From positions 25,929 to 89,928 of the forward strand of contig CAZGAO010000009.1 in the NCBI GenBank assembly GCA_964523795.1: 64,000 nt of DNA, given 5' to 3'. The position numbers and the translations under genes were made by a program. This stretch comes from an uncultured Lentimicrobiaceae bacterium. GTDB taxonomy: Bacteria > Bacteroidota > Bacteroidia > Bacteroidales > 4484-276. Shown here piece by piece: positions 10,631 to 34,259 of this stretch. A model generated the notes under the pieces. The model did no database searches and was not told where the DNA came from. It saw nothing but the letters and a program-made list of their open reading frames with translations. The first letter of the stretch is position 1. Every line of letters begins with the position of its first letter.

Positions 10631-10720
10631 TAAAAAGAATAATACTTTTGCTCGAATTGATATTTTGTTCAATAAATATTTTTAAAAACCAACATTTTAA
10701 ACTCATTAAATATTAAAGTT

Positions 10721-11368: not shown

Positions 11369-11401
11369 GAAATCAATTATTAACAATAAAATACAATAGC
11401 G

Positions 11402-14584: not shown

Positions 14585-14632
14585 GTAAGGGGGTGAAACA
14601 ACTTCGCCTGTAACAACAAATTTTTTGTGTAG

Positions 14633-14676
14633 CCACACTTGCCCGCTCGAAGTCGGGCAAGTGTGGATTCTATTTT
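14633..14676 (+). terminator. Hairpin (13-bp stem CCACACTTGCCCG / CGGGCAAGTGTGG, 8-nt loop) followed by a U-rich tract; likely terminator of the 11402-14584 gene
   Basis: Perfect inverted repeat at 14633-14645 / 14654-14666, then ATTCTATTTT. Confidence 0.4.
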
Positions 14677-14783
14677 CGCGTGAATACGGATGCAAATTCC
14701 GGTTAATCTGTTTGTGTAAAGTCAAAAAGTTTCTTTTAAAACCCAAATTTTTATTAAAAATATCAAAGTTGTGATATTAAGTA

Positions 14784-14791
14784 TATCTTTG
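14784..14791 (+). promoter_or_regulatory. Bacteroidota -7 element TAtcTTTG upstream of the csp gene
   Basis: Matches the TAnnTTTG consensus of Bacteroides sigma-A promoters about 40 nt upstream of the csp ATG; the downstream leader CTTTGCAGCG(A/T)C..AATTTAAT is shared with the sRNA candidate at 48909. Confidence 0.35.
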
Positions 14792-14830
14792 CAGCGACAA
14801 TTTTAATTAAATAACAGTATTATTATTAGT

Positions 14831-15022
14831 ATGAAAGAAGGTAAAGTAAAATTCTTCAACGAAGCCAAAGGTTTTGGTTTTATTAAAGATGCAGAAACAG
14901 ACGAAGAATACTTCGTACACGTAACCGGTCTTATCGATCGCATTAACGAAGATGACGATGTATCGTTTGAACTCAAGCAAGGCAAAAAAGGATTGAACGC
15001 TGTAAATGTGAAACTTATCTAG
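14831..15022 (+). CDS. csp: Cold-shock protein (CspA family, S1-like cold-shock domain)
   Basis: 63 aa; MKEGKVKFFNEAKGFGFIKDAETDEEYFVHVTGL... contains the RNP1-like KGFGFI and RNP2-like VFVHF-type motifs typical of CspA. Confidence 0.9.
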   Translation: MKEGKVKFFNEAKGFGFIKDAETDEEYFVHVTGLIDRINEDDDVSFELKQGKKGLNAVNVKLI

Positions 15023-15046
15023 TTTATAATAAGTAAAGAAATCCTA

Positions 15047-15077
15047 AAAGCCCCAAATTTATTTGGGGCTTTTTTTG
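15047..15077 (+). terminator. Rho-independent terminator after csp
   Basis: AAAAGCCCCAAATTTATTTGGGGCTTTTTTTGTG: GC stem (GCCCCA/TGGGGC) followed by a T7 run. Confidence 0.7.
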
Positions 15078-15165
15078 TGCCCATTTCCCACCTTCCGATA
15101 AAATCAACTATTTTAGTTGCCTGAATAATATTTTATCATTCACCACTCACTAAACGATTTTTGCT

Positions 15166-18150: not shown

Positions 18151-18158
18151 ATAAGTTT

Positions 18159-18249
18159 CAGAGACGCGCAAATTACGCGTCTGTACTGTTGCAAGCAATT
18201 TTTTATTTTCTTTTTGGAATTCCAGAGACGCGCAAATTGCGCGTCTGTG
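18159..18249. repeat. Two copies of a REP-like palindromic element CAGAGACGCGCAAATT(A/G)CGCGTCTGT
   Basis: 18159-18185 and 18223-18249; 8-bp GC-rich stem AGACGCGC/GCGCGTCT with a 6-7-nt loop. The same family recurs at 52964, 53048 and 54310. Confidence 0.55.
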
Positions 18250-18284
18250 CAAGCTCAGCATCTTTTATAAATCCAGGCATAAAA

Positions 18285-18396
18285 TCATTCGTGCATTTCT
18301 GCCAAAAATGGCGGGCAGGCGTGGCATCAGAAATAAAAATTCATTCGTGCATTTCCGCCAAAAAGGGCGGACAGGCGTGGCCTCAAAAATAAAAAA
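18285..18396. repeat. 56-bp tandem direct repeat (2 copies) in the upstream region of the 18472 gene
   Basis: TCATTCGTGCATTTCTGCCAAAAATGGCGGGCAGGCGTGGCATCAGAAATAAAAAT versus TCATTCGTGCATTTCCGCCAAAAAGGGCGGACAGGCGTGGCCTCAAAAATAAAAAA. Confidence 0.55.
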
Positions 18397-18471
18397 TTGT
18401 ATTTTTATCAAAAATTTGAGTAATTCGCAAATCAAAATTTGAGTCATTCGATAATCTAAAACGATATCATC

Positions 18472-21384
18472 ATGAAAAAGTCAGCCTTTTTATTCCTGTT
18501 TGCAATCTTCTTTTCTCCCTTCGCCATTGGGCAAAGCTTGCCCACCGGTGGAGAATGGACAATTATGGAAACCTTTGATATTCCTGGTAAGGCCTCGGGC
18601 TTGGCCTGGGATGGCACCTACCTTTATTTTGGTATTTACGGCCAGTACGGCGACCAGTTTTATCAGTTCGATCCCGCAAGCGGCGAAGCCACGCTTTTGT
18701 TCACGCATCCCGAAATCGAGGACAGCTTTGGGATGAGCTGCGATGGCGAAAATCTTTGGGTCATTCACCAGCCCTCGGGCAGTTCCAATCCCTCGTTGGC
18801 CACTCAGTTGGATTTGGGAGGAAACATCCTTTCCACCATCACCCTGCCCGATCACTACATGTCGGGCATTGCCTGGGATGAGGGTAAACTTTGGGTTTCC
18901 ACTTATTATCCCGATCCGGGCACCGTTTATCAAATTGATGACCAGGGCACGGTTCTCCAACAATTTGCACCACCCATCGCTGATCAGGTGTGGGACTTGT
19001 GTCGGCAGGATGACTTCTTGTGGTTTGCCGATTATAATGCCGACCTGATTTACAAAACCGATCTAAGTGGTGCCATCCTCGAGCAGCATGATGCCGAAAA
19101 TATTAAACCCTCAGGAATTGTTTACGATGGCACTTTCCTGTGGTATGTCGATGGGCAGTTGTCGAGTCCGAGCACGCTTTACAAGATCGACCTGGGCGGC
19201 GCAGGCACACCAGAGATTAATGTCCCTGTAACTTATCACGATTTTGGGATGGTTACCGTTGGCGATTCTGCGGTGTGGAATCTTAGCGTCTTCAATCAGG
19301 GCAATGCCCCGCTTAGCCTCGATAATTTTATCATTCCCAATTTGACACCGGTATTCACCTACGAAGTTTTCCCTCAAATAGTCGAGCCTGGTGAAAGCAC
19401 CGAGTTGGTATTGATTTTTAAACCCATCGAAGCAAGCCTCCTGGCTGTTCTTATTAACCTCCAATCCAACGACCCGGTAACGCCCGAAGTCGAAATACAG
19501 TTGGAGGGAGAATCGGTGCTGGAAGGTCCGGTTATTCAAGTGGTTGACGATAATTATGACTACGGGCAGGTGCGTGCCAGGGCTTTTACCCGTTGGTTTG
19601 TAGAGCTGGCAAATATTGGCGATGAAGCCCTCATCATCGAAAGCATCGAAAGCAGCGATCCTGCCTTTGTGGTGGACGAAACCATTGTTTTCCCCTTTTC
19701 GATTTCACCACTCCAAATCGCTGATTTTGGTATTTGGTTTAATCCCGGCGAGGGCCTTGTTTATGAGGGTATGCTAGCGATCTTCAGCAATGATCCACAA
19801 AATCCTGAAGTGGAGGTTTTAATCTCGGGCCAGGGCGTGGAACAGGATTATCCGATGGGCGAGCAGCTCTGGCAATATACCATCTCCGGAGGTTTCGACA
19901 ATAGCCCAAAAGCTATTGGTTCTCTCAAAGATATTACCGGCGATGCCGTTAACGAAGTCATCGTTGCTTCCGAGGATAATCTTGTCCGTTGCTTTAATGG
20001 CAATTCCGATGGCTCGGCCGATGTGCTGTGGGCGCACGAAATTTATTCGGGCAATGTTTATCAAAGCGAGGCCTTGGGCTTTTTGCCCGATATCGATGGC
20101 GATGGCTACGATGAAGTAGTGGTGGGCACTACCGGCGGCGATCGTGCGGTAAAAGTCTTGTCGGGAAAAACAGGCGAGCAGGTCTGGGTTTTTCACACCA
20201 ATACCTGGGGCGATGGCGGCTGGGTTTACGAGGTGGATGCCAGTCGCGATTATACCGGCGATGATGTGGCCGATGTGCTGGCCTGCGCCGGCGGTAGTTC
20301 CACGGGAACTGGGGCCAGCCGGGTGTTTTGCTTAGATGGAAGCAATGGCGATCTGGTGTGGGATTACTATCTAAATGGCCCTGGATTTTCGGTTATTGCC
20401 ATCGATGATGTAAATGGCGACGGTATTTCGGATGTGCTTGCGGGGGCTGCCAATGCCGACGAAAGTCAGGGCAAAACCGTGTGTGTGGATGGCAGCACAG
20501 GCTTTGAGATTTGGACTGATCTGGCCGAAGGAAGCTCGGTGTGGGCTCTTGCCCAACTGGACGACATTAATAGCGATGGCGTAAACGACGTGGCTTCGGG
20601 TGAGTTCGGTAGTGGTGATTTTAAAATATTTGATGCCACCAATGGTGATGTTTTGCAGAGTGGAAGCATGGGCGGCGGCTACGTGATTATCACCGACATT
20701 GTTCCCCTGAATGATGTAAATGATGATGGCTACGCCGATTTCACCATCCAGGCAAGCACCAGCAATCTGGTAGTTGTGGATGGCTTGACCGGCGAAACCC
20801 TCTGGCTGACATCTTTGGCCGACCAGGTGCAAAAGGTAAATCGCATTCCCGATGTGAGCGGCGATGGCATTAACGATATTGCGGTGGGTACTTTGTATCA
20901 GAATAATTATGTTTATTTTATTGATGGTGTAAACGGCGACATCCTCGATGAAATAGAATATGGACAGCCGGTGGACGCGCTTTTGGTTATTCCGGATATT
21001 AATGGCGATGACTCGTGGGAGGTGGTAGCCGGTGGCCGCGAGGGTAAGGTGGTTTGTTTTTCGGGTGGTTTGGATGCCAATACTTTTACCTCCGAATACG
21101 CAAGCCCTGTGGTGAAACTTACTATTTTAGTATCTCCTAATCCGATAGCCAACCATGGTTTGATAAGCCTGGAAGCCACGGATGCGGTTGAGGGAAATCT
21201 TAGCCTTATCACAGCAGGAGGTCGGATGATTAAGGATTTTGGCTTTCAAAAACTTGAAAACGAAACAAAATTATTTCCATTAAATATCCAAACTAAAAAT
21301 GGCGAAAGGCTATTGCCGGGCTTGTATTTTGTGGTATTTTCACACGGGCAATATACCACGTCCACCAAAGTAATAGTAAGGTAA
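18472..21384 (+). CDS. T9SS-secreted protein with beta-propeller region and multiple FG-GAP/VCBS-type (integrin-alpha-like) repeats and C-terminal Por sorting domain
   Basis: Signal peptide MKKSAFLFLFAIFFSPFAIGQ; repeated DxDGDGxxD(V/I) motifs (DIDGDGYDEVVVG, DDVNGDGISDVLAG, INSDGVNDVASG, VSGDGINDIAVG); C-terminal KLTILVSPNPIANHGLISLE...LYFVVFSHGQYTTSTKVIVR. Confidence 0.65.
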   Translation: MKKSAFLFLFAIFFSPFAIGQSLPTGGEWTIMETFDIPGKASGLAWDGTYLYFGIYGQYGDQFYQFDPASGEATLLFTHPEIEDSFGMSCDGENLWVIHQPSGSSNPSLATQLDLGGNILSTITLPDHYMSGIAWDEGKLWVSTYYPDPGTVYQIDDQGTVLQQFAPPIADQVWDLCRQDDFLWFADYNADLIYKTDLSGAILEQHDAENIKPSGIVYDGTFLWYVDGQLSSPSTLYKIDLGGAGTPEINVPVTYHDFGMVTVGDSAVWNLSVFNQGNAPLSLDNFIIPNLTPVFTYEVFPQIVEPGESTELVLIFKPIEASLLAVLINLQSNDPVTPEVEIQLEGESVLEGPVIQVVDDNYDYGQVRARAFTRWFVELANIGDEALIIESIESSDPAFVVDETIVFPFSISPLQIADFGIWFNPGEGLVYEGMLAIFSNDPQNPEVEVLISGQGVEQDYPMGEQLWQYTISGGFDNSPKAIGSLKDITGDAVNEVIVASEDNLVRCFNGNSDGSADVLWAHEIYSGNVYQSEALGFLPDIDGDGYDEVVVGTTGGDRAVKVLSGKTGEQVWVFHTNTWGDGGWVYEVDASRDYTGDDVADVLACAGGSSTGTGASRVFCLDGSNGDLVWDYYLNGPGFSVIAIDDVNGDGISDVLAGAANADESQGKTVCVDGSTGFEIWTDLAEGSSVWALAQLDDINSDGVNDVASGEFGSGDFKIFDATNGDVLQSGSMGGGYVIITDIVPLNDVNDDGYADFTIQASTSNLVVVDGLTGETLWLTSLADQVQKVNRIPDVSGDGINDIAVGTLYQNNYVYFIDGVNGDILDEIEYGQPVDALLVIPDINGDDSWEVVAGGREGKVVCFSGGLDANTFTSEYASPVVKLTILVSPNPIANHGLISLEATDAVEGNLSLITAGGRMIKDFGFQKLENETKLFPLNIQTKNGERLLPGLYFVVFSHGQYTTSTKVIVR

Positions 21385-21396
21385 GACCGCTTTAAC

Positions 21397-22116
21397 ATGA
21401 TAATAGAAGCAGCAGGGTTTTCGCACACGGGCACTCGAAGAGCCAAAAATGAGGATGCGGTTTTGATGCACGATCAAATTTATAATTCAGGATTTTTTGA
21501 ATTTGAAGGCGAAAACCATGCGCGCATTTTTGTTGCCGATGGGGTAGGGGGTGCTCCTGCCGGCGATATAGCTGCTCATTATGTCTTAAGCCAGCTCAAC
21601 CAGCGTATCCCGCCGGCATCTTATCCGCAAAAAACCGACCTTGAACAAACACTTATTTCCATCAACAACGATTTGTGCGAGTATGGCAAAAGCAACTTGC
21701 ATACCCACAGCATGGCTACTACTTTAAGTGGAATTTTGGTCAATGACCATCAATATCGCATTGTTAATGCCGGCGATTCGCGGGTGATGATATTACGTGG
21801 AAAGAATTTGGAACAGCTCACCACCGATGATATTATGGATGTTCACGCCATGTACCGACCGCTCACAAATTATTTTGGTGGTCCTGTGCCACTGGTTAAA
21901 CCTGCCATTATCGATTCGGATGAAGATTTAAAAACCGATACCCTATTTTTTATTAGCTCCGATGGCATCTTTCATTGCTTTTCTACCAACCAGCTTGGGA
22001 AAATCCTGGCTAATTCGAGCAGCCTCGCTACAAAGGCGAAAAGTATTCGCGATGAAGCACTCGCCACAGGCTCGCCCGACAATATCTCATGTGTTTTGCT
22101 AAAAATAAGTTTTTAA
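21397..22116 (+). CDS. PP2C-family Ser/Thr protein phosphatase
   Basis: HTGTRRAKNEDAV, FVADGVGGAPAGDIAA, NAGDSRVMIL and SSDGIF are PP2C metal-binding motifs; the start lies only 12 bp after the upstream gene's stop. Confidence 0.8.
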   Translation: MIIEAAGFSHTGTRRAKNEDAVLMHDQIYNSGFFEFEGENHARIFVADGVGGAPAGDIAAHYVLSQLNQRIPPASYPQKTDLEQTLISINNDLCEYGKSNLHTHSMATTLSGILVNDHQYRIVNAGDSRVMILRGKNLEQLTTDDIMDVHAMYRPLTNYFGGPVPLVKPAIIDSDEDLKTDTLFFISSDGIFHCFSTNQLGKILANSSSLATKAKSIRDEALATGSPDNISCVLLKISF

Positions 22117-22136
22117 TGAAAAATTATTTTTAGGAT

Positions 22137-25100
22137 ATGAACGAATTTTTTACTGACATATACCAAACAAAGGCCTATACAGCCGATGACTTCGGCAAGG
22201 ATACCAAAATCCTGCAAACGGTGGGAAGAACTATACCCTATTTGTCGGATTTTGCACTGGATGAAAACAGAACTCAGGCCTACCACCCTGAACCATTGCC
22301 CGAAAAAAAAACGGCTAATTACCAGTTGGCACCCGGCGATAAGGTAGAACTCAACAGCATAAGCTACACCGTAAGCGGGATCATTGCCGAGGAAGGCAAA
22401 AATGCTGAAGCTGCCATTTATAAGGTAAAAAACCCGAAAGATGAGGTTTTTGTCTTGAAGCTCTATTATGAGTTTAGCAATCCTCGTCTTGAACCCAATT
22501 CGGATACCCTGCAACGCATTCGCGAAATTAACAGCCACGACATTTTGCGCCTGTTCGACTTTGGCACCGGCCCCAATAAACATCTCGAAAAGTATTGCTT
22601 CGAAATTGTGGACTTTGCCGCCGGTGGCGACTTGCTTAATGTTGCCGACATCCCAAAGAAATATACTCCCGATTTTATTAGCGAAAAAGTAGTACAATCG
22701 GTGGCAGATGGCTTGCGTACCCTTCACGCCGAAAAAATTTACCACTGCGACCTGAAACCGCAGAATGTTTTCTTTTTGGATGCGGAGCAAAGCAAAATTG
22801 TGATCGGTGATTATGGTTCCGCAAAATCCTTCGAGAAATCATCGCACAAGGAGCTGAGTTATACTACCATCACTAAGGGCACCGAGTTTTATCTCGCTCC
22901 CGAGCAGGCTTTTGGTATTGTTTCCGAGAAAAATGATTATTACAGCCTGGGCATGATCGTCCTCCACCTGCTTTACCCCGACCAGGTTAACCGCGAGAAT
23001 TTGCGGCGTATTTTTGAACGACGTACCAAGGGCTTGCCCATCATCGATTTTGATGATCGTTTCAAGCGACTAAACATGCTTATTCAGGGGCTTACCCTAC
23101 AGGATTATAACAGCCGATGGGGCGAAAAGGAGCTGAGCCGATGGTTGGCAGGCGAGGAGGTGGAAGTAAACTACAACTTGGCAGGTCATCGTCAGGTGCT
23201 GAAAATTGGGGAAATCGAAATCAAGACCGGCGACCAACTGGCGGCATACATTCGCAGCGATCCCTTCTTTTTTGATGAGCTTATCGAGGACAGGGAAGGC
23301 TATAGTATGCTGCTGGCCTGGCTTAAAAATATGCAGGGCGAACAGAACGCTGTGCAGTTTGACGGCATGGTATCTTACTACAAAAAGTATTTCGGTTTCG
23401 ATTATGTAAAAGAGGCCTTGCTGTTTTATTTTGACCCGGCGCATCAGGTTAGCGTGGGCCTGGAAACATTCCGCTTTGCTGTGGATCAGGATATCGAAAC
23501 TGCTGCATCCAATTTCTTTAAAACCCTGGATGCGCTGTGGAAAACTACCGATTTCGAAGTTATGCGTTTTTACTTTTTCCGCTTCGAGTTTGCCATGCGC
23601 AGGCTAAGGGTGAAATCAGGAAATGAGTCTCAAAAAATTATCGACTTTATCCTGAACAAAATTGCGGCTATTGTTGAAACGGCTAACAGCGTTGACTTTT
23701 CGGAGTTAAAAGCCGATATTTATATCCACTTAAAAGATCAGCATTTTTGTGATTTTTTCTATTTGTTTGATGCCCGGCGTAACTTTAAAGACCTGTGTGG
23801 CCATGAATATACCAGTTTGTTTGAGCTTGACGAATTGCTGCGATCCAATCCGCCTGGAGGCAAAACCGAAACCCTGCACTGCGAAAAGCATTCGTTTTTG
23901 CGCCAACGGGTAAGCAGGGAGGATCTTTTGGAGTTTTTCGAATTCAGCGATACGGCTCCCGGGTTTTTTAGGGATAAAGAAGTGGATTATCGCTTGCTTC
24001 TGGAACTGATCCACAAATTTACAAAGCCCCGATATAGCCTTCCTTTCTTGCAACAAGTGGTGGCGCATTACAAAAATTCCCCGCCCCGTATATTTACTGC
24101 CTTGGTTTTACGCCTGCTCGATCCCGAAAGAGCGATAAAGGTAAGTGGTAAAGAGATATTGCTTCACCAGCATGGTGATTTCAAAAATAAGCTGGAAGAT
24201 TTTTTTGAGGCCCTCAATCGATTCCGCCTCACCGCATCTATCGAGCAGGTGAGAACCCTGTTCTTTGACTTTGAATTGTGCATGATGCAAATCGCTGCCG
24301 ATGATGCCGTCTTTGGCCAAAAACAGGCAGCACTTGCTTTTGGGAAAATACAGGAAATCCTCCAGGTTCAAGCTCCCGACATGCAGCTTCTAAAGGCTTC
24401 TTTTTACCCGGATATGAGGGAGGAGCAGCTCCTGGAAATCATTTATGCCTTTTTGCCTGCTGCCTCTTTTTGTAACCACCTGGGCGATTACCTTAGCTCC
24501 GGCAACGAAATTGCACTTTACTACTTGCAATATCCCGGAAAATACAACGAAAAGTCCTCGACCATCGAACGTGAAATATATCTTAAAAAGGCCGGGCAAC
24601 GCGGACTTCTCGATTTGTCCTTCAAGGATTTTATCATGCGGGTCTTCCATCGAAATGCCTTTACTGACGTGAGCATCGAAAATATGGTTTTTGATGAGCA
24701 GGCAGCCAACGAGCTTTCCGTTTATTATGTTTATTCCGGCTCTATCCAAAATTATCTGGAATCTTTGGGCTACCATCTGGACTTCGACTGCCAGCCCTCA
24801 TCGCAACAAAAGGTAACGCTCCCCATTAAAATGCTTACCAGCGATACCGGCTTGTATCAAAAATTTGCTACCCACCTGCACCACCACCATGCCATTGGAA
24901 ACCTTGATCCCAATTTGGAATCCCAATTTCTGTCCAAATTTGAGGTACTCAAACAGCGCGATTTCAGAGCTTCCTTTAGTTTGGTGCCACGATATATGCT
25001 GCATTTGTTGCCGCCCTTTGCCTTGCTCTTTCTGGCCTCTGCCTACTTGTTCGATTTTTCCTTTTTCAAGCAGCTTTCATTTTCGATTTCTCCCGCGCTC

Positions 25101-25565
25101 AACATGGTGTCGGCACGCCTGGCCACCGCCAATTTTAGCAGCCTGCTTTTCTCGGCATATTTTGTAAACCTTTGGCTGGGTATTGCATTTTTGCTCCCTG
25201 TTTTTAGTCTCAAATACAAAAGAAAACAGTTCGAAAATTTCACCCTCCTTTACAGCTCTTTAATCAGCAAACTGACTACGCTCCTGGTGTTTGCGCCGGT
25301 TTTGTTTATCGCCGGTTATTATTTTTCCAACTTGATATTTGGTGATTCAATTTTTATTCTAAAATGGCTCAATCTTACTTTGGGTACTTCCGATTTTATA
25401 ATTTTACTCTATATTCTTTTCATGCTTTACCAGTCTTTGCAAGTGGTGCATGCTATTTTCAGAGCATTCGGAAAAATCCGTATTGTGCCCTTGCTTATTG
25501 CTGTGTGCGCCTATTTGCTGTTGTATTACTTCACTATCATCAACCAAAACTTGTACGTACTATGA
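22137..25565 (+). CDS. Ser/Thr protein kinase (Hanks-type) with about 550-aa uncharacterised central region and C-terminal multi-pass transmembrane domain
   Basis: Kinase motifs VFVLKLY (beta3 Lys), HCDLKPQNVFF (catalytic loop), VIGDYGSAK (DFG-like), YLAPEQ (APE); C-terminal 200 aa form about 5 hydrophobic helices. Confidence 0.75.
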   Translation: MNEFFTDIYQTKAYTADDFGKDTKILQTVGRTIPYLSDFALDENRTQAYHPEPLPEKKTANYQLAPGDKVELNSISYTVSGIIAEEGKNAEAAIYKVKNPKDEVFVLKLYYEFSNPRLEPNSDTLQRIREINSHDILRLFDFGTGPNKHLEKYCFEIVDFAAGGDLLNVADIPKKYTPDFISEKVVQSVADGLRTLHAEKIYHCDLKPQNVFFLDAEQSKIVIGDYGSAKSFEKSSHKELSYTTITKGTEFYLAPEQAFGIVSEKNDYYSLGMIVLHLLYPDQVNRENLRRIFERRTKGLPIIDFDDRFKRLNMLIQGLTLQDYNSRWGEKELSRWLAGEEVEVNYNLAGHRQVLKIGEIEIKTGDQLAAYIRSDPFFFDELIEDREGYSMLLAWLKNMQGEQNAVQFDGMVSYYKKYFGFDYVKEALLFYFDPAHQVSVGLETFRFAVDQDIETAASNFFKTLDALWKTTDFEVMRFYFFRFEFAMRRLRVKSGNESQKIIDFILNKIAAIVETANSVDFSELKADIYIHLKDQHFCDFFYLFDARRNFKDLCGHEYTSLFELDELLRSNPPGGKTETLHCEKHSFLRQRVSREDLLEFFEFSDTAPGFFRDKEVDYRLLLELIHKFTKPRYSLPFLQQVVAHYKNSPPRIFTALVLRLLDPERAIKVSGKEILLHQHGDFKNKLEDFFEALNRFRLTASIEQVRTLFFDFELCMMQIAADDAVFGQKQAALAFGKIQEILQVQAPDMQLLKASFYPDMREEQLLEIIYAFLPAASFCNHLGDYLSSGNEIALYYLQYPGKYNEKSSTIEREIYLKKAGQRGLLDLSFKDFIMRVFHRNAFTDVSIENMVFDEQAANELSVYYVYSGSIQNYLESLGYHLDFDCQPSSQQKVTLPIKMLTSDTGLYQKFATHLHHHHAIGNLDPNLESQFLSKFEVLKQRDFRASFSLVPRYMLHLLPPFALLFLASAYLFDFSFFKQLSFSISPALNMVSARLATANFSSLLFSAYFVNLWLGIAFLLPVFSLKYKRKQFENFTLLYSSLISKLTTLLVFAPVLFIAGYYFSNLIFGDSIFILKWLNLTLGTSDFIILLYILFMLYQSLQVVHAIFRAFGKIRIVPLLIAVCAYLLLYYFTIINQNLYVL

Positions 25566-27079
25566 GCGGGCCAAAAAGTTATTCGTGCAGGGTTTTTAAT
25601 AAGCAATTGCTCGGCTTGTTTATGCAGCAGGCAGCCATCGACAATTTATGGGAATTGCTGCATTCGCGGCGCATTGTGGATAAACAAAGAGGAATCGAAA
25701 TTACCAACGATGACTTTATCCGTGCCAATGCTGCAAGTTATCAGGAACTTTGGATGAACCCCGGGGTAACCAAAGGCAAAGTGCTCGATCAGCAGCAGTT
25801 CGACAATAGTTACAATTGGATGCAGGCTGCCCTAAATCATCATCAAAAGTTAAAAACTAAACTGGAAGCGCAGCATCAGGATTTTGACCGCATCGAAGAA
25901 GCCTGGCACGCCTATCTTGACCTGGAACTTTTTAAAAAGGATTTGGATGAGGAGTTTATGAGCCTGAAAAATCAGATGTTCGATTATTTGAAATCTTTAA
26001 AAATTGATAAAAGAAAAAAAGAGCAAGGCATCAGCCGACTTGCTGCGATGGAAATCTCTTACGTCCTCCCGGAGTTTCCGGTCGAGCGGATTGAGGCAAT
26101 GGAGAGCATCCGTCAAAATATGATAGCTCATTACAACGAAAGTAAAAGGCAAATTGGGATGGAGGCTGGTATTGAGGAAAGTAGAAAACGAGCAGTGTTT
26201 CACAAAACAAAGGTAAAAATGCTGATCGATGAAAGCCTGTCCATTCATAATTCTGATTTTGATTTGGATGTGATGCTTTCGTCCATCAGGCAGGCTATTG
26301 CCAAAATTGAATCCGCCAGCCAGGCGGTCATTTATAAAAATCGCCTCCAGAAAATTTTGAAAAATAATAGCGGACAGGAATCCTATTTTTTTGCTGAACT
26401 GTTCGAGGATTTGAAAAAGTATAGCGATAAACAGGAAAAGCGAATCAGCCTTGAAATGCTAATCCAAAAACTGCCCGAAGGTTTGCTGTCAAAGGATTTG
26501 CTTGTCGAAATTAATAAAGTAAGAACGGATATTGATTTGTTAATGCAGCAAGTGCAAATTAAAAATGACGATCTGGCAAGGATTGAGCACAGTATTTACA
26601 AAATTAAAGAAAAGCAAGCTGCCGCCTTTCGGGAACAGCAATATATAAAATCGAATATTGTGGCCTGCCTCAACGATTTAAACTATACCGTGGCTGATGA
26701 TACCGAGCTGATCGATTTAGAAAGCAGCGATGATTTTCTGCTTTCTATTCCCGGCCAGTCCAACTACCTCAATCTGCGCTTTGATACCACAGGAAATGTG
26801 TTGTACAATTTTTTGATACCTGATGAACCGGATAGTTTATCTTACGATGAAAAATCGCTTAAGTATGCCGAAATGCAGGATACCTGTACTGCTTTTAAAA
26901 AAGTGCTTGCGGATTTGAAAAGCCAGGGACTAAACATCGATTTGCAGCACGAAATCCTGATAAGCGAGAAAGCCCTGGTAGCCTTACCCCGAATATATCG
27001 CAGCAAGCTGAATCCAATAAAGACAGCAAAACCCGCAAAACAAAAACCGGGCAGTATTCACAGAGATATAAAAAAATAA
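25562..27079 (+). CDS. Coiled-coil protein of unknown function (506 aa), translationally coupled to the kinase
   Basis: The ORF track gives 25364, but the in-frame ATG at 25562 overlaps the kinase TGA as ATGA (25562-25565); the sequence is rich in heptad-like K/E/Q segments; no recognisable catalytic motif. Confidence 0.5.
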   Translation: MSGPKSYSCRVFNKQLLGLFMQQAAIDNLWELLHSRRIVDKQRGIEITNDDFIRANAASYQELWMNPGVTKGKVLDQQQFDNSYNWMQAALNHHQKLKTKLEAQHQDFDRIEEAWHAYLDLELFKKDLDEEFMSLKNQMFDYLKSLKIDKRKKEQGISRLAAMEISYVLPEFPVERIEAMESIRQNMIAHYNESKRQIGMEAGIEESRKRAVFHKTKVKMLIDESLSIHNSDFDLDVMLSSIRQAIAKIESASQAVIYKNRLQKILKNNSGQESYFFAELFEDLKKYSDKQEKRISLEMLIQKLPEGLLSKDLLVEINKVRTDIDLLMQQVQIKNDDLARIEHSIYKIKEKQAAAFREQQYIKSNIVACLNDLNYTVADDTELIDLESSDDFLLSIPGQSNYLNLRFDTTGNVLYNFLIPDEPDSLSYDEKSLKYAEMQDTCTAFKKVLADLKSQGLNIDLQHEILISEKALVALPRIYRSKLNPIKTAKPAKQKPGSIHRDIKK

Positions 27080-27157
27080 AACAATCTTATTACCGCTTCT
27101 TTGCTTCAAGTCTTATTTTCTTAATTTTGAAAATATTTTTAAATCAAACCAAAGCCG

Positions 27158-29056
27158 ATGTCAGATTTTTATAAGACCATTTTTCCGGGATGGATGCAGG
27201 AATTCAAACGTTTTCAAACCCTAAAATCGCAGTTTTATCTCTTTGGCAATGTTTACGATTGCTACTATTTCCCGGTAAATTATGATAAGGTAAAGGATAA
27301 GAGTAAGTTGCAGTGGGCGCGTTTTAACGACCTGAAATTGCTGCTCAAGCTCTATCTTAAAAACGAGGGGTACGAAATTATTTCGTACTACGATGTGATT
27401 GATGGCATCGACATCGAATCGCCGGTGGATGAAGAGCTGGGTAGGAATACTATTGTAAAATATCTGATCGATAATGTGCCCTCAGCCAAAGGGATTCTCG
27501 ATTCGAAGAAAATCGGAAATATCGAAAAAAAGATTACCGATGCCCTCACTTTTTATCGGGTGCTGATGTCGAACAATAAACGGCTGTCGGCGGGCATCAT
27601 CAATTACAGCTCGCGCTTTTCGGGCGACCCCAACAGCCTGAGCGAGGATGAACGTATAATTTTCTTAAAGCTGCTCAAGTCGGCTCAGGATGCCCGCCTC
27701 TTTCCCGAAAAGAAGGGTATGCGCAATATCCTGATTTTTATTTGCGATAAGCTGAACGATATTCCCAGCTGGCTCCTCCTCGAAAACCCGCTTACCCGCG
27801 GTATCCACATCACCAAGCCCAACAAGGTAGAGCGCAATCGTTTTTTGGAAGTGCAAATCCAACGCTTTTACCAGCAGGGTGCGCCGGTACAAACTGCTGA
27901 ACTCAAAGCCGTTTTTGCTGACCTCACCGAGGGCTTTGCCAATCAGGAACTCGAAAATTTGATTACCATCTCTCACCAGGAAAAAATACACGTCAATAAT
28001 ATCCAGCAGATCATCGACCTTTTTAAATACGGTACCCGCGAAAACTTTTGGGAAGACCTGGAAAAGGAAAAGATAGAAAACGCCGGTAGCGAATTGTGCA
28101 AGCGCGTGATGGGGCAGGATGCCGCCATTGCCAAGAGTGTGGAGATTATCCGCCGTGCCAAGCTGGGGCTTAACTCGATTGATATGAAGCGCAATAAGTC
28201 GAAGCCCAAGGGCGTGATGTTTTTTGCAGGGCCAACGGGCGTGGGGAAAACCGAGCTGGCCAAGTCGCTCGCTGCCCTTATTTTTAATGACGAGGATGCT
28301 ATTCTGCGCTTCGACATGAGCGAGTACAACGATTCAAACTCCGACACCAAACTCATCGGTTCGCCCCCGGGATATGTGGGTTACGAGGAAGGGGGGCAAC
28401 TGACTTCGCAACTCAGCGCACGCCCATTTTCTATTGTCCTCTTTGATGAGATCGAAAAAGCACACCCGGTCATCTTCGACAAATTTTTGCAGATTCTCGA
28501 TGATGGTCGCCTAACCGATGGCAAGGGCGAAACGGTGTATTTTAGCGAATCGCTCATTATTTTTACCAGCAACCTCGGCGTTTATACCGAAGACGAAAAC
28601 GGACAGCGGGTGCTCAATGTAAACTACGAAGACTCCAACGATGTTACTGCCAAAAATATCCTCGGCGAAATCCGTAACTTTTTTAATACTAAACTCAATC
28701 GTCCCGAAATATTGAATCGCTTTGGTGACAATTTCGTGGTTTTCGATTTTATTCGCCCTGATGTGGATCGCGCCATCCTGATTAAAAGTTTGAATATGAT
28801 CCGCGAAAATTTGAAAAAGCAAAAAAACTGCGACTTCCAATTTGATGATGCCTTTGTGGCAGATTTCCGGGAGTTTTATATCAGCGATAATCTGATAAAT
28901 GGCGGACGGGGAATTAATAATCGCGTGGAAACCTACATAAAAAATGGGATTGCCAATTTTATGTACGGGCAGGAAAAAATCCAGGAGCTGAGTTTTCGGA
29001 TTTTTGTCGATCGTACGGACAAGCATAAAGTAAAGTTTGAATGTACTGGCAGCTAA
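27158..29056 (+). CDS. AAA+ ATPase with a single ClpA/ClpB D2-type (AAA_2) module and about 330-aa N-terminal domain of unknown function
   Basis: Walker A GVMFFAGPTGVGKTELAKSLA; Walker B IVLFDEIEKAH; sensor-1 region FLQILDDGRLTDGKGETVYFSESLIIFTSN matches the ClpA/B D2 signature; no second AAA module and no ClpB middle domain. Confidence 0.7.
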   Translation: MSDFYKTIFPGWMQEFKRFQTLKSQFYLFGNVYDCYYFPVNYDKVKDKSKLQWARFNDLKLLLKLYLKNEGYEIISYYDVIDGIDIESPVDEELGRNTIVKYLIDNVPSAKGILDSKKIGNIEKKITDALTFYRVLMSNNKRLSAGIINYSSRFSGDPNSLSEDERIIFLKLLKSAQDARLFPEKKGMRNILIFICDKLNDIPSWLLLENPLTRGIHITKPNKVERNRFLEVQIQRFYQQGAPVQTAELKAVFADLTEGFANQELENLITISHQEKIHVNNIQQIIDLFKYGTRENFWEDLEKEKIENAGSELCKRVMGQDAAIAKSVEIIRRAKLGLNSIDMKRNKSKPKGVMFFAGPTGVGKTELAKSLAALIFNDEDAILRFDMSEYNDSNSDTKLIGSPPGYVGYEEGGQLTSQLSARPFSIVLFDEIEKAHPVIFDKFLQILDDGRLTDGKGETVYFSESLIIFTSNLGVYTEDENGQRVLNVNYEDSNDVTAKNILGEIRNFFNTKLNRPEILNRFGDNFVVFDFIRPDVDRAILIKSLNMIRENLKKQKNCDFQFDDAFVADFREFYISDNLINGGRGINNRVETYIKNGIANFMYGQEKIQELSFRIFVDRTDKHKVKFECTGS

Positions 29057-29700
29057 ATAGAATTATCTACCCCGTTTACAATCTGGGGTCTGGAAGGCGG
29101 CTGGCCATCTGGGTGCAGGGCTGTAGCCTGGGCTGCCCGGGCTGCATCAACCCCGAGCTGTGGGATGCCACCAGGGGAAGAAAAGTGGAGGTTTTTGGAT
29201 TGGCACAGATGATACAGGAGATCGCGCATAATTTTGACGGGATTACGATTACCGGCGGCGAACCCTTCGACCAATACGAGGCACTCATGGTTTTTACCAG
29301 TTTTATCAAACAGGAAACCAGGCTTGATACCTTGGTTTTTTCGGGTTATACCCTGGCCGAATTACAATCCAAATTTCCGGATAACTTGTTTACTCGTGCC
29401 ATCAACTATTTGATCGATGGCCGCTACCAGCGCGATTTGCACGCGGATGATCAACTGCGTGGTTCTTCCAATCAGCAACTGTATCGTTTTTCAAAATCTT
29501 CCGCTAATGGTGCTGCTGATTATGCAAGGGACAGCAAAATAGAGCAGCTCGATTTTTGGAAAGCCACCGGACATTGGGCTTTAAAAATTGACGAGAACAA
29601 ACAAGCTTTTATGAGCGGTATTCCACGCCGCGACGACATGGAGTATTTGGCCAGACGCTTGGCCGATTCAGGAATTAAATTCGAAATCAAAAATGTATAA
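29041..29700 (+). CDS. Radical-SAM activating enzyme of the NrdG/PflA-like (4Fe-4S single-cluster) family
   Basis: GSGRRLAIWVQGCSLGCPGCINPELWD contains the CxxxCxxC cluster motif in the NrdG/PflA context; GITITGGEPF is the SAM-binding glycine-rich motif; 16-bp overlap with the AAA+ gene. Confidence 0.65.
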   Translation: MYWQLNRIIYPVYNLGSGRRLAIWVQGCSLGCPGCINPELWDATRGRKVEVFGLAQMIQEIAHNFDGITITGGEPFDQYEALMVFTSFIKQETRLDTLVFSGYTLAELQSKFPDNLFTRAINYLIDGRYQRDLHADDQLRGSSNQQLYRFSKSSANGAADYARDSKIEQLDFWKATGHWALKIDENKQAFMSGIPRRDDMEYLARRLADSGIKFEIKNV

Positions 29701-30316
29701 GATTAATTGCGATTATTGCTTTGAAAGCTATTTCTTTGAGAAGCTGGATGAAAAGCCAGCAGACTGCAAAAATTGTAACTCACCGCTCGATCACATCGAG
29801 CCGGAGCTGGTGGATGCGGAAAGCCCGGAGGTAGTTTTGGATGATCAGGATATAGTTCTCCGTTTTACCTATCAAAAAACCGGCGAGCGTATTAGCATTC
29901 CATTTAGCGATACCATAGTTCTGGGTCGCCAAAGTGCCGGCAAAAGTGTGTTTGAAAAAATTCCCCAGATCAGTCGCGAGCATTGCAAGATCGAGTTTAT
30001 CCACGGGCAATACCGGGTAACCGATTTAAATTCGCTCAATGGCACTTTCGTGGGCTCTTCACGCCGCGATTGCCTGAAACATCAAAAAGAAGTTTTGACG
30101 GATAACTCAGTGCTTTATCTGGGGCGTGAGCCTTTTTTGGTAAGTATTAACCTGGATGCGGCGAATACTAAAATCACGAAAAACCTTAGCGCGGCTGCTG
30201 ACGATTTCGATGCCCTTAGATTTAAGTGCAAAGCCTGCGGCAAAGTCCACGCGATGAACCTGATGATTTGCGATGAGTGCGGATCTTATGGTCAAATTGA
30301 ACCGCTCACCGATTAA
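29693..30316 (+). CDS. FHA-domain protein flanked by N- and C-terminal zinc-ribbon (CxxC...CxxC) motifs
   Basis: FHA core IVLGRQSAG...ISREHCKIEFIHGQYRVTDLNSLNGTFVG...NSVLYLG; CDYC..CKNC and CKACGKV..CDECG cysteine pairs; start overlaps the previous stop by 8 nt. Confidence 0.7.
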   Translation: MYKINCDYCFESYFFEKLDEKPADCKNCNSPLDHIEPELVDAESPEVVLDDQDIVLRFTYQKTGERISIPFSDTIVLGRQSAGKSVFEKIPQISREHCKIEFIHGQYRVTDLNSLNGTFVGSSRRDCLKHQKEVLTDNSVLYLGREPFLVSINLDAANTKITKNLSAAADDFDALRFKCKACGKVHAMNLMICDECGSYGQIEPLTD

Positions 30317-30371
30317 GTTTGTTGTGCCTCTGTAATTTTTAATTTTATAACCAGGAACCTTATTTAATTTC

Positions 30372-31043
30372 ATGTCAAATCATAAATCAGAAACTTTATC
30401 CAAAGCCATCACCGTGCAGAGCGTTCGCATGCTCACCGATTTTGCTTATGTATTAAAATTCGATCGCAAGCAAAGACCCTTCACCGCAGGGCAGCACGTT
30501 ATTTTGGGTATTAAAAACGAAAACAATGCCCGCGAATATTCGGTTTACAGCGGTGAGCACGACGATTATTTTGAAGTCCTGATAAAAGAGGTACTCGAAG
30601 GCGATGTTTCTAAGCGATTAAAAAAACTAAAGACCGGAAGCCAGTTGCAGATGGACGGGCCGCTGGGTTTTTTTAGCATAAAAGCATCCGATATCGAAAC
30701 TCAAAAATTTGTCTTCCTGGCCACAGGCTCGGGCATAGCGCCCTTCCGCAGCTTTGTGCGTTCCTATCCCAAGCTGGATTATACGCTTTTGCATGGCGTG
30801 CGATATGCCGGCGAAGCCTACGATCGTGAGGAGTATGACCCCGAGCGATATTTGCTTTGCACCACGGCGGACGAATCGGGCGACTTTCATGGCCGCATCA
30901 CCGATTATCTGCGCCAGCATGACATCGATACGCAGGCTCATTATTATCTTTGTGGCAACGTAAAAATGATTCACGAAGCCTTCGATATCCTTAAAGAAAA
31001 AAATGTGGCTCAGGAAAATATGCACGCCGAAGTTTATTTTTAG
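30372..31043 (+). CDS. Ferredoxin/flavodoxin-NADP(+) reductase-like FAD/NAD(P)-binding oxidoreductase (FNR family)
   Basis: REYSVYS (RxYS FAD motif), LATGSGIAPFRSF (NAD(P)-binding GxGxxP), about 220 aa, the size of Fpr-type reductases. Confidence 0.7.
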   Translation: MSNHKSETLSKAITVQSVRMLTDFAYVLKFDRKQRPFTAGQHVILGIKNENNAREYSVYSGEHDDYFEVLIKEVLEGDVSKRLKKLKTGSQLQMDGPLGFFSIKASDIETQKFVFLATGSGIAPFRSFVRSYPKLDYTLLHGVRYAGEAYDREEYDPERYLLCTTADESGDFHGRITDYLRQHDIDTQAHYYLCGNVKMIHEAFDILKEKNVAQENMHAEVYF

Positions 31044-32618: not shown

Positions 32619-34259
32619 ATGAACAAAATATTTACGCTAACCTTCCTCGTAATAATTTCTGTCAATGCCTTTGGGCAGGATATGTACTTCCCTCCTGAGT
32701 TTGAAAAACAGGAAGGCCTGCTGCTTACCTGGGATTACAACGATAGTCGCAACCCAATTACCGCAGCCATTGCCAAAGCCGTTCAGCCCTCCGCAAGGGT
32801 TTGGGTAATTTACTATCCCGGCACAGCTCCCATGGATACCACCGAAATTCGCGACTATTTGCGTAATCATAGTGTGCCCGATGCAAACGTTTTCCTCATC
32901 CCAGCCTGGACCGAAACCCTTTGGATACGCGATTACGGCCCTTTCGCCGGTTACAATTTGGAGGTTTCTTCGCCCGAAAGGCTATTCTTCGATGCCGGTT
33001 ACTCCAACTACGGCCGACCTAACGATGATGCCATCCCCACGCAGTTGGGCGACTTAATGAATATCGCTGTCCAGGATTTCCCCTTGCAGTTTGAAGGTGG
33101 CAATGTGCTGACCGATGGCCTGGGCCGTGCCTGGGGCAGCACCCGGATATTTTCGCAAAACCCCCAGATGACCCCAAAAGAAGTGGAAGTAATGATGGAA
33201 TCCTATTTTGGTATTGATGATATGATGTTTTTGGAGGCAGTGGTGAACAGCGGCGGTGGAATTTGGTGCCACGTGGATATGTTTATGAAAATCCTGGACA
33301 GCGAAACTATCATGATTTCAGAATATCCCGATTTTGTTCCCGATTACGCGCTCATCGAATCCTTTGTGGATACGCTCTCCAAAATGACAAATGCCAACGG
33401 GCGAGCCTATCAGATTGTGCGAATTCCCGCACCTCCCAAAGCCAATGGCCAATGGGCTACAAGTCAAAACGATGAGATGCGCACCTACACCAATTCCATT
33501 ATTATCAACGATGTGGTGGTAGTGCCGTCGTACGATTTACCGATTTACGACAGCCTGGCCTTTCAAATTTACAGTGAGCAGATGCCCGGTTATCGCATCG
33601 AAATGGTAGAAGCGGTCGAGCTAACGCCACTTTATGGATCCTTGCATTGCATCTCGAAAGAGGTAACGAAAGCTGATTTTTTAAAAATCAATCATGCAAA
33701 GCTGTGCGGAATGAAGGATTATACCGATCCTTTTTTTATAGAAACTGAAATATGGACGGATGGCCAGCCCGATTCTGCCTTTGTGTTTTACAAAACTTTG
33801 GGAGAGCCAAATTTTAATAAAACCGCCCTCACAGCTTCCGGTGATGTTTTTAAGGCCGCCCTCGCCAACATCGAGTACCGCGATACCATCACTTATTTTC
33901 TTTCTGTTTTTAAAGCTGGAGATCAAACGAACTTCCCCACCCAGGGTGCTGGCGGAGCTTACACTTTTTGGTTTGACCCATCGGTGGATATCCGCGAAAG
34001 CGTGTTGTCGAATAACGAAACTTTTGATGTTTTCCCCAATCCTGCTTCTCAGGCATTTTCGATAGGCCTTAGTTTGGATGACTTTCCATATCACTTAGAT
34101 ATTTTCAATGCGATGGGTAAATCGGTTTTCCAAGCAGCAATTCTGCAAAATTATCAATTCATACCAGTAGCAACTAATTTGCCAAATGGCCTTTATTATT
34201 TGCAATTGCAAAAAGATGCCAGGATTTTAGGTCGTCAAAAATTATTGATAATAAAATAA
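32619..34259 (+). CDS. Agmatine deiminase / Porphyromonas-type peptidylarginine deiminase (PAD_porph) family enzyme with C-terminal T9SS sorting domain
   Basis: WIRDYGPF, FEGGNVLTDGLGRAWGS, catalytic GSLHCISKEV; signal peptide; C-terminal DVFPNPASQAFSIGL...LYYLQLQKDARILGRQKLLIIK is a T9SS CTD. Confidence 0.7.
   Translation: MNKIFTLTFLVIISVNAFGQDMYFPPEFEKQEGLLLTWDYNDSRNPITAAIAKAVQPSARVWVIYYPGTAPMDTTEIRDYLRNHSVPDANVFLIPAWTETLWIRDYGPFAGYNLEVSSPERLFFDAGYSNYGRPNDDAIPTQLGDLMNIAVQDFPLQFEGGNVLTDGLGRAWGSTRIFSQNPQMTPKEVEVMMESYFGIDDMMFLEAVVNSGGGIWCHVDMFMKILDSETIMISEYPDFVPDYALIESFVDTLSKMTNANGRAYQIVRIPAPPKANGQWATSQNDEMRTYTNSIIINDVVVVPSYDLPIYDSLAFQIYSEQMPGYRIEMVEAVELTPLYGSLHCISKEVTKADFLKINHAKLCGMKDYTDPFFIETEIWTDGQPDSAFVFYKTLGEPNFNKTALTASGDVFKAALANIEYRDTITYFLSVFKAGDQTNFPTQGAGGAYTFWFDPSVDIRESVLSNNETFDVFPNPASQAFSIGLSLDDFPYHLDIFNAMGKSVFQAAILQNYQFIPVATNLPNGLYYLQLQKDARILGRQKLLIIK

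Follow-up and report, generated by a model that had tools for sequence, protein, structure and literature searches.

The 64-kb window described here (the whole stretch of 64,000 nucleotides taken from contig CAZGAO010000009.1 of an uncultured Lentimicrobiaceae bacterium) encodes a cassette of six genes which, without the FNR-type flavin reductase gene that follows them, almost certainly form one functional module. These genes specify a PP2C-type Ser/Thr phosphatase (PP2C), a receptor-type Ser/Thr kinase (STK), a helical protein lacking a family assignment (UNK), an AAA+ ATPase, an NrdG/PflA-like radical-SAM enzyme (rSAM) and a protein carrying a forkhead-associated (FHA) domain. That the same gene content is kept among relatives in spite of rearrangement is strong evidence for the functional linkage of the six. 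Taken as a whole, the predicted proteins and their contexts make it moderately probable that the cassette is a phospho-Thr-gated unfoldase module with a protein-directed rSAM and a role in conflict or stress.

An earlier note, made from the DNA letters and their open reading frames (ORFs), had described seven co-directional ORFs at 21397-31043 together with their junctions and motifs. All of these were present in the ORF list, in the translations and in matches to Pfam (2025) and NCBIfam (June 2026). The features are as follows:

21397..22116, + strand: PP2C-type Ser/Thr phosphatase, 239 aa (Pfam PP2C/PP2C_2, 3e-8)
22137..25565, + strand: membrane receptor-type Hanks Ser/Thr kinase, 1142 aa (Pkinase, 2.9e-21)
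25562..27079, + strand: UNK, helical protein, 505 aa, without family assignment
27158..28057, + strand: AAA+ protein, N-terminal tier (residues 1-~300), degenerate AAA+ domain without Walker A
28058..29056, + strand: AAA+ protein, C-terminal tier (residues ~300-632), ClpB/ClpC-D2-type (AAA_2, 7.4e-48)
29041..29700, + strand: NrdG/PflA-like radical-SAM enzyme, 219 aa (Fer4_12, 1e-28)
29693..30316, + strand: Zn-ribbon / FHA / Zn-ribbon protein, 207 aa (FHA, 6.7e-11)
30372..31043, + strand: FNR-type flavin reductase, 223 aa (FAD_binding_6 and NAD_binding_1)

The PP2C and kinase genes are separated by a 20-bp gap (22116 to 22137), and the kinase and UNK genes share an ATGA stop/start overlap that was read directly (25562-25565). 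The AAA+ and rSAM genes overlap by 16 bp (29041-29056) and the rSAM and FHA genes by 8 bp (29693-29700). Such start/stop overlaps are conserved among relatives. The start of UNK was placed at 25562 because its homologues begin with MSGPK, a longer ORF from 25364 being an artefact.

Conservation of the cassette and its reductase neighbour

Genomic contexts were gathered from exact-protein look-ups, from a search with an AAA+ N-terminal domain (N-domain) profile through 185,579 genomes representative of their species, and from ORF and hidden Markov model analysis. The scan returned 51 loci, a lower bound for what was a pattern scan. Thirty-one loci were well flanked (at least 6 kb upstream and at least 2.5 kb downstream of the AAA+ gene); here the AAA+ N-domain gene was accompanied by an rSAM gene at 26, by FHA and kinase genes at 23 each, by a UNK gene at 21 and by a PP2C gene at 20. 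All six genes were identified in nearly all type-A loci of sufficient length, in several gene orders. The cassette families recur in more than 12 phyla, the lineages represented being Bacteroidota, Acidobacteriota, Desulfobacterota, Cloacimonadota, KSB1, Moduliflexus, Ignavibacteria, Chlorobiota, Spirochaetota, Myxococcota, Bdellovibrionota and others.

The genes are arranged in no fewer than five orders, and at one locus (L027) a PP2C homologue is fused to a kinase. The window has the order PP2C-STK-UNK-AAA-rSAM-FHA, and the permuted orders include STK-UNK-AAA-rSAM-FHA-PP2C, UNK-AAA-STK-STK-rSAM-FHA-PP2C and UNK-AAA-rSAM-FHA-STK. The UNK gene is almost always located immediately upstream of the AAA+ gene, and the FHA gene adjoins the rSAM gene in all type-A orders; at L019 this rSAM-FHA pair has been relocated away from the AAA+ gene. 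Clustering of all flanking ORFs yielded no seventh recurrent family. A syntenic set of AAA+, rSAM, FHA, STK and PP2C genes thus recurs across phyla, as the earlier note had proposed to check, and the tie that it drew between Hanks kinase/PP2C/FHA signalling and a ClpB-D2-type ATPase with an NrdG/PflA-like rSAM is supported by this recurrent co-occurrence.

The cassette is rare, patchy in distribution and horizontally spread. The AAA+ protein of the window shows 72% identity to a copy in Desulfobacteraceae, as against 55-60% to many copies in Bacteroidota. Cassette contigs were also observed in metagenome-assembled genomes binned as Heimdallarchaeota (L013), Bathyarchaeia (L046) and 'Borreliella garinii' (L044), which may reflect horizontal transfer into archaea or errors of binning or labelling. 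Reduced loci were encountered as well. At L031 (9956-12476) an AAA+ gene is followed by an FHA gene, with no rSAM, kinase, PP2C or UNK gene within 10 kb, and the AAA+ gene stands alone at L043 (Thiomargarita), L048 and L055 (a Geminocystis plasmid, beside a HigB toxin gene). These loci may be decaying copies or may represent a stand-alone mode.

The FNR gene, with the motifs REYS and GSGIAP in its translation, had been counted as a member of the system. Radical-SAM enzymes require a reductant, and this gene is co-directional with the cassette and begins just 55 bp downstream of the FHA gene. A seven-gene version, in which the FNR protein serves the rSAM as its dedicated source of electrons and the AAA+ protein carries a glycyl-radical-like loop (SSRFSGD), is nevertheless very improbable and is already contradicted by synteny. 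Among 66 related loci, not one has an FNR homologue. The gene is likewise lacking in L008 and L061, the nearest relatives by synteny. Their AAA+ proteins share 79% and 82% identity with the window protein, and what comes after the FHA gene there is an SDR/RseC pair or Hexapep/methyltransferase/Mfd genes. Furthermore, the 55-bp spacer is AT-rich and could carry a promoter of its own, and SSRFSGD, which the earlier note had offered as a partial glycyl-radical loop, was rejected as such since its glycine (G156) varies among AAA+ homologues. Because of its absence from all 66 loci and from L008 and L061, the FNR gene was excluded from the module and is best regarded as a lineage-specific local neighbour. 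The suggestion of a conserved, unnamed operon-like module therefore held for the six genes that recur across phyla and not for the reductase.

Predicted activities of the encoded proteins

The C-terminal tier (D2) of the AAA+ protein is closely related to Clp-family modules, with NCBIfam matches to ClpB (1e-72), ClpA (2e-62) and TssH (1.5e-55) and PDB sequence matches to ClpC, ClpE and ClpB D2 (~1e-61). It possesses Walker A (GPTGVGKT), Walker B (LFDEIEKA), the pore loop GYVG, sensor-1 (TSN) and sensor-2 (GGRG), and its Walker motifs, pore loop and sensors are invariant in 53 sequences, plasmid variants included. The full protein misses the equivalog cut-offs of ClpB (245.6 against 1232 bits), ClpA (211.6 against 993 bits) and TssH (TIGR03345; 188.9 against 884.95 bits). 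The earlier note had described a single-module ATPase with a novel N-domain; residues 1-300 instead form one degenerate AAA+ module which by structure has an AAA+ fold, nearest to classic-clade AAA+ proteins (FtsHi, Rix7 and Pex6) rather than to Clp D1. FYLFGNVYD occupies the Walker A position of this D1 tier in place of GxxGxGK[ST]. Residues 1-300 show no significant sequence match to D2 and a weak match to Sec18 in a sequence search. No Clp N-domain was detected using Pfam or NCBIfam, no middle coiled-coil domain was noted, and inspection by eye revealed no IGF/VGF tripeptide for ClpP docking. The protein does not possess two active nucleotide-binding domains that both carry Walker A and Walker B. 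Since residues 1-300 are AAA+-folded but devoid of Walker A, it is predicted to be a two-tier unfoldase with a pseudo-ATPase D1 and an active-looking ClpB-type D2. Its scores far under the equivalog cut-offs and its AAA+-folded D1 set it apart from an ordinary ClpX/ClpA fragment.

Full-length identity of the AAA+ protein is 55-85% across phyla. A search with the window protein gave full-length homologues of 58-84% identity, and those with a named source organism come from several phyla. The N-domain family comprises 585 clusters (50% identity) in 1.84 billion protein representatives, nearly all of them 600-700 aa in length, and occurs essentially only in the two-tier architecture. Fusions to rSAM, FHA or UNK were not found among 149 family representatives.

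NCBIfam analysis of the rSAM gave NrdG (TIGR02491) as the best match, with 98.1 bits against a cut-off of 126.1, while PflA (TIGR02493) reached 49.3 bits against 231.75; PflA is also the sole PDB sequence match (4e-5). The motifs CSLGCPGC (CxxxCxGC), GGEP, LGSGRR (LGxGxR) and GSxNQ are conserved in 48 members, with the LGPGxR motif aligning at the position of DGPGIR in PflA. A C-terminal extension of ~60 aa is specific to the family, which forms a coherent NrdG-like clade of ~205-aa proteins (930 matches). An identity as QueE, against which the earlier note had wished the protein to be checked, was rejected, as QueE models match at just 1e-3 and the clade is a separate one.

A search for an RVSGY-like glycyl-radical loop found no such motif: RVxG[FYW] occurs neither in the seven proteins of the locus nor in any ORF of 150 aa or more across the 64-kb window. 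Nor was nrdD identified in the window, or NrdD or PFL among the annotated neighbours of related loci. To our knowledge, the NrdG/PflA activase family has so far been met solely as partners of glycyl-radical enzymes (GREs). With no glycyl-radical loop in cassette or window, the chemistry of this rSAM need not be classical glycyl-radical formation. Whether it acts on a protein is an evenly balanced question; it looks protein-directed because its nearest families are the NrdG/PflA activases and not QueE or viperin.

It is improbable that the rSAM instead makes or modifies a small molecule, such as a nucleotide-derived signal or chain terminator in the manner of viperin or QueE, with the AAA+, FHA and kinase proteins regulating or responding to it. 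The lack of a glycyl-radical motif is consistent with this idea, as are the inclusion of QueE among minimal rSAM folds of ~200 aa, weak QueE (~1e-3) and pVip profile (~1e-5) matches within the family, and the established role of viperin-type enzymes as immune effectors (PADLOC pVip models). However, the protein-activating NrdG and PflA match far better than anything else, the activase-type motifs GxGxR and GSxNQ are conserved, and the enzyme is strictly coupled to a protein-threading ATPase and an FHA protein, not to nucleotide kinases or synthases.

Automatic annotations name the rSAM 'anaerobic ribonucleoside-triphosphate reductase activating protein' and the AAA+ protein 'ClpA', which would suit a chance juxtaposition of a true NrdG, a Clp ATPase fragment and an unrelated STK/PP2C/FHA set. 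Such a coincidence is scarcely credible and is refuted by the comparative data, given that the set is conserved across phyla despite rearrangement and that the AAA+ N-domain family is essentially confined to this architecture. Both proteins also fall far under the NCBIfam equivalog cut-offs, and the window has neither nrdD nor a glycyl-radical motif.

UNK gave no match in Pfam, NCBIfam or PADLOC, nor any PDB sequence match. An AlphaFold2 model (predicted local distance difference test score, pLDDT, 78) shows a long helical bundle and a small alpha/beta domain made up of an N-terminal strand and residues ~391-466, whose structural neighbours are generic only (EzrA, helical bundles and KA1-like domains). 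UNK is the fastest-evolving member of the cassette, with 22-34% identity against 55-85% for the AAA+ protein over the same pairs of loci. Its N-terminus, MSGPK[S/D/G]Y (window positions 25562-25582), is near-invariant (37 of 38 homologues, as well as the copy on a Clostridia plasmid) and is often followed by xPPPxYS, which suggests a site of recognition or modification. The fixed position of its gene beside the AAA+ gene and this invariant N-terminus make UNK the most economical candidate for a substrate or adaptor. The ~370-aa proteins of type-B loci and the ~434-aa proteins encoded upstream in the distant clade showed no detectable homology to UNK and are positional analogues only.

The kinase consists of a kinase domain (residues ~75-345; motifs HCDLKPQN, DYG and APE), a middle region outside Pfam (~350-880) for which no PDB sequence match was obtained, and five hydrophobic transmembrane (TM) segments between residues 954 and 1124. 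The kinase domain and middle region are conserved among relatives. The C-termini differ by lineage, and consist of multiple TM segments, TM with one or more FGE-sulfatase domains, TM with SH3_3, or a bare tail anchor. A receptor kinase whose sensor is diversifying would be expected to show such a pattern. The PP2C retains intact metal-binding motifs (DGVGG, NAGDSR, SSDG and DNIS) and matches an Stp1/IreP-like NCBIfam model at 1.7e-32, which is under the equivalog cut-off. The FHA protein has the canonical phospho-Thr-binding residues (GR...SxxH...NGT) in a core flanked on both sides by four-cysteine ribbons, each with two CxxC pairs, and a rubredoxin-type Zn_ribbon_LapB match (Pfam, 4.5e-3); 33 homologues retain these cysteine pairs and the FHA core. 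In every cassette family the catalytic and binding motifs have been kept, and the corresponding activities look intact.

Comparison with known systems and distant variants

Neither a name for the system nor a model covering UNK or the AAA+ N-domain was found in Pfam, NCBIfam or PADLOC-DB v2.0 (2023). With PADLOC, only generic kinase matches and AAA_2-type matches (PDC-M37B and DolB) were obtained, and none for PP2C, UNK, rSAM, FHA or FNR. No description of the cassette was found in full-text literature searches, Anantharaman et al. 2012 (TerY-P) apart, which might mention it in passing. The cassette is apparently undescribed, and the combination of an activase-type rSAM with a pseudo-D1/ClpB-D2 unfoldase under phospho-Thr control apparently has no described counterpart. 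The profile and motif searches found no GRE, type VI secretion system (T6SS) gene or PADLOC system, in keeping with the statement of the earlier note that no GRE, T6SS gene or known defence gene is present.

The T6SS proteins PpkA, PppA, Fha1-TagH and ClpV offer a resemblance in gene content, a membrane Hanks kinase, a PP2C, an FHA reader and a ClpB-family AAA+ protein being co-encoded in both cases, and in the logic of an envelope cue feeding a phospho-Thr switch. The cassette FHA protein weakly matches TagH. However, the match of the cassette AAA+ protein to TssH (189 bits against 885) involves D2 alone, its D1 is dead and a ClpV N-domain is lacking, while the cassette adds a radical-SAM enzyme and UNK. 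No T6SS core genes (TssB/C, Hcp, VgrG or baseplate) were found among the scanned genes of the window or the annotated neighbours of related loci, and affiliation with T6SS was rejected in view of the missing structural genes and the TssH score far under the cut-off.

The class-I Hsp100 proteins ClpB, ClpC and Hsp104, and the single-ring Skd3/CLPB, have a closely related D2 (1e-61 to 1e-72) with the GYVG loop and sensors, and two stacked AAA+ tiers are shared with the class-I members. The cassette protein differs from the latter in its D1 without Walker A and in lacking ClpN and, by eye, a ClpP-docking loop. With NrdG and PflA the rSAM has in common the minimal fold, CxxxCxGC, GGEP, the N-terminal GxGxR and the C-terminal GSxNQ; it differs in scoring under the equivalog cut-offs, in its ~60-aa extension, in having no GRE nearby and in its pairing with an AAA+ ATPase (26 of the 31 well-flanked loci). 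A functional analogy may be drawn with McsB/ClpC, where proteins tagged by a kinase are delivered to a Clp-family unfoldase by way of a reader of the tag. There the tag is phospho-Arg rather than phospho-Thr, the reader is the N-domain of ClpC, ClpP is the partner and no radical-SAM enzyme takes part.

Two defence-related systems were also compared. The TerY-P triad (a TerY-like vWA protein, a PP2C and an STK) likewise employs a kinase/PP2C pair as a portable switch in mobile cassettes (PMC11090510), and that source, citing Gao 2020, gives TerY-P-like kinase/phosphatase modules as experimentally shown defence. The window cassette differs in having an FHA reader and no vWA protein (Pfam; vWA was found only at the distant locus L067), and its kinase is a membrane receptor and not a Zn-ribbon/OB-fold fusion. 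Mokosh is an experimentally shown defence system, type I of which consists of MkoA, an STK joined to an Upf1-like helicase, and MkoB, a PLD nuclease (bioRxiv 10.1101/2022.05.11.491447). The window kinase matches the kinase part of the MkoA profile (2e-17), and the likeness extends to plasmid variants in which AAA+ and rSAM genes accompany an MkoA-like helicase and a nuclease-type protein, and to a kinase-helicase fusion in Rhizobium. In contrast, the window cassette has neither a COG1112 helicase nor a PLD nuclease, a helicase together with PIN being confined to the distant plasmid variants, and Mokosh as described is without an AAA+ unfoldase, radical-SAM enzyme, FHA protein or PP2C. TerY-P and Mokosh are thematic relatives only.

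A tblastn search of plasmids with the AAA+ N-domain identified 13 distant homologues (22-30% identity), and the contexts of six of them were inspected. A plasmid of Aristaeella lactis (Clostridia) carries STK, UNK-like, FHA, rSAM, AAA and PP2C genes, with a DUF4011 helicase gene immediately upstream (L057, 1-2640). The defence hotspot cDHS1 of Pseudomonas aeruginosa lies between a core gene for a DUF4011 helicase and a gene for a radical-SAM enzyme (PMC10250203), and the association of helicase with radical-SAM enzyme is possibly a recurring theme. Plasmids of Acinetobacter, Polaromonas and Photobacterium have in common a co-directional, tightly spaced string of five genes (L056, 1-9438; L058, 554-10465; L060, 344-10051), encoding an MkoA-like helicase, a PIN protein, a ~370-aa helical protein, the AAA+ protein and an rSAM. 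This Upf1-type helicase matches the PADLOC Mokosh model with an E value of 7.6e-102, and by its predicted content the string looks like an undescribed Mokosh-related system with PIN in place of PLD. Behind the Acinetobacter string come another radical-SAM gene and a small AAA gene. On the Rhizobium leguminosarum plasmid pRLgr12_2 (L059, 7992-16733), AAA and rSAM genes precede a gene for a 2086-aa protein whose Ser/Thr kinase domain is fused to a helicase region like those of PDC-S37, Hhe and MkoA. Several of the plasmid loci adjoin transposases or an integrase, and HigB was also seen.

Distant variants in metagenomes showed the orders rSAM-X-AAA-FHA-PP2C-STK, FHA-AAA-rSAM, X-FHA-rSAM-AAA-PP2C and AAA-STK(TPR)-vWA-FHA-PP2C. 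The AAA+ and rSAM genes occur with the full phospho-Thr set at L057, L064 and L068, and FHA, AAA+ and rSAM genes were recognised at L066. At the metagenomic locus L067 (353-7676) a distant AAA+ gene is followed by genes for a TPR-kinase, vWA, FHA and PP2C in a TerY-P-like arrangement, on a contig with only 350 bp of sequence ahead of the AAA+ gene. As the AAA+/rSAM pair persists across the distant variants, it is the invariant core, with the phospho-Thr triad as its usual companion; in some lineages the pair shares operons with parts of defence systems, known or candidate.

Possible roles and genomic setting of the cassette

The most likely role for the cassette is in a conflict or stress response (of the anti-phage or abortive-infection type) rather than in core metabolism. 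This view is based on the sparse, phylum-hopping spread, on the fast evolution of the kinase sensor and UNK, on the Mokosh-like, PIN and vWA partners of the plasmid variants, and on the precedent for kinase/phosphatase switches in defence (Mokosh and TerY-P). Conflict taken by itself is close to an even proposition. In the mechanism proposed, the membrane or extracytoplasmic part of the kinase, which varies between lineages, would sense an envelope or infection-related cue, and the kinase would phosphorylate Thr on itself or on a cassette protein. The FHA protein would read this phospho-Thr and join the rSAM to the AAA+ hexamer, while the PP2C would reset the switch. The AAA+ ring might then unfold or thread a protein substrate, and the rSAM might abstract a hydrogen atom from the exposed polypeptide backbone, with UNK (MSGPK N-terminus) as the best candidate substrate.

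It is unlikely, if conceivable, that the AAA+/rSAM pair is a new type of immune or stress effector, licensed by the kinase, whose ClpB-like motor unfolds a protein for an activase-type enzyme to attack or modify at the exposed backbone by abstraction of a hydrogen atom. The substrate in that case could be either the co-encoded MSGPK protein or a protein of an invader, and the pseudo-ATPase D1 ring together with the Zn-ribbon-FHA protein would provide an assembly platform under phospho-Thr control. Were this so, it would be the first activase-family radical-SAM enzyme to work without a GRE and the first radical-based protein-targeting arm in prokaryotic defence.

A number of observations weigh against a phospho-Thr-gated conflict or stress module. 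Type-A cassettes are flanked by ordinary chromosomal genes (type IX secretion system (T9SS) cargo, MiaB, glycosyltransferases and two-component systems) and were not found in recognisable defence islands or with tRNA or integrase borders; at L028 a single tRNA-Glu lies ~7 kb downstream. Incomplete loci exist (L031, L043, L048 and L055), the cassette has no obvious toxin or nuclease, and AAA+ N-domain homologues were not found on phage or viral contigs. The AAA+ protein is unusually conserved for an immune protein, and in the model of UNK the MSGPK sequence is a strand within a domain and not a free tail. The chemistry and target of the rSAM are guesses, as the cassette has no glycyl-radical motif, and the function, substrate and phosphorylation proposed for the cassette are predictions.

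The ordinary flanks and the lack of a nuclease or toxin would suit a physiology unconnected with conflict, for instance membrane or cell-wall quality control, in which a receptor kinase controls a disaggregase or unfoldase and an rSAM maturase modifies a helical scaffold in an envelope-stress or developmental pathway. Such a role is rather unlikely. It accords with kinase ectodomains of ligand-binding or cell-wall-binding types (SH3_3, FGE-sulfatase and multi-TM), with conservation of the AAA+ protein equal to that of housekeeping ClpB, with the likeness of the UNK model to EzrA/spectrin-like scaffolds and KA1-like membrane-binding domains, and with the upstream neighbour shared by the window, L008, L051 and L061, which suggests stable vertical inheritance there. 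It is at odds with a distribution that is extremely sparse and scattered over phyla, with clear signs of horizontal transfer, with the rapid divergence of UNK and the kinase sensors, and with distant plasmid-borne variants that carry Mokosh-like helicases, PIN, vWA and kinase-helicase fusions.

Should the unfoldase/rSAM module act in the way proposed here, it would represent a new substrate class for the NrdG/PflA activase family and the first mechanical coupling of that family to an unfoldase. It would also provide a compact, reconstitutable phospho-Thr circuit with a receptor kinase, a PP2C, an FHA protein and a defined output machine, and the distant variants would point to an unrecognised effector or accessory module common to several conflict systems. 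Cultured carriers exist, namely Polaribacter sp. R77954 (complete genome) and the Acinetobacter, Polaromonas, Photobacterium, Rhizobium and Aristaeella strains with their plasmids, so that the cassette is directly testable. It is located at about 1.4566-1.4648 Mb of NZ_CP138992.1 in Polaribacter sp. R77954 and at 21.5-28.6 kb of the Aristaeella lactis plasmid NZ_CP069422.1.

The window is an ordinary-looking piece of Bacteroidota chromosome, with no obvious step in base composition at the cassette and no recognisable defence island, tRNA or integrase adjoining it. Upstream (4549-21384, + strand) lie five very large co-directional genes for surface proteins with Laminin_G, PKD, lamin-tail, CotH-kinase, FG-GAP and beta-propeller domains. 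A Por_Secre_tail (T9SS sorting) domain is clear in three of the five and weak in one, and the last of these genes stops 12 bp ahead of the PP2C start codon. An FG-GAP gene precedes the cassette in four genomes of one lineage (the window, L008, L051 and L061). Five more distant homologues of this gene in metagenomes are not followed by the cassette, which is weak evidence only as their orthology is uncertain. A scan of the region for promoters and terminators gave counts equal to the shuffled expectation, with a tool that holds no Bacteroidota promoters. Antisense ORFs within 21397-31043, such as 22113-22790 (- strand, 225 aa) opposite the kinase gene, are not genes; those opposite the AAA+ gene recur in relatives merely as shadows of that conserved gene.

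Downstream of the cassette are located genes for MiaB, a secreted peptidyl-arginine deiminase, Aat and pyruvate kinase, of housekeeping type. The deiminase (32619-34259, + strand) consists of a PAD_porph domain (8e-44) fused to a T9SS sorting tail and is of the PPAD type. WYL regulators are frequently associated with defence loci, and such genes were observed some kb from the cassette at L008 (17855-18754, + strand), where the protein has only weak helix-turn-helix and WYL matches, and in the window (47565-48602, - strand), where WYL and WCX are both present.

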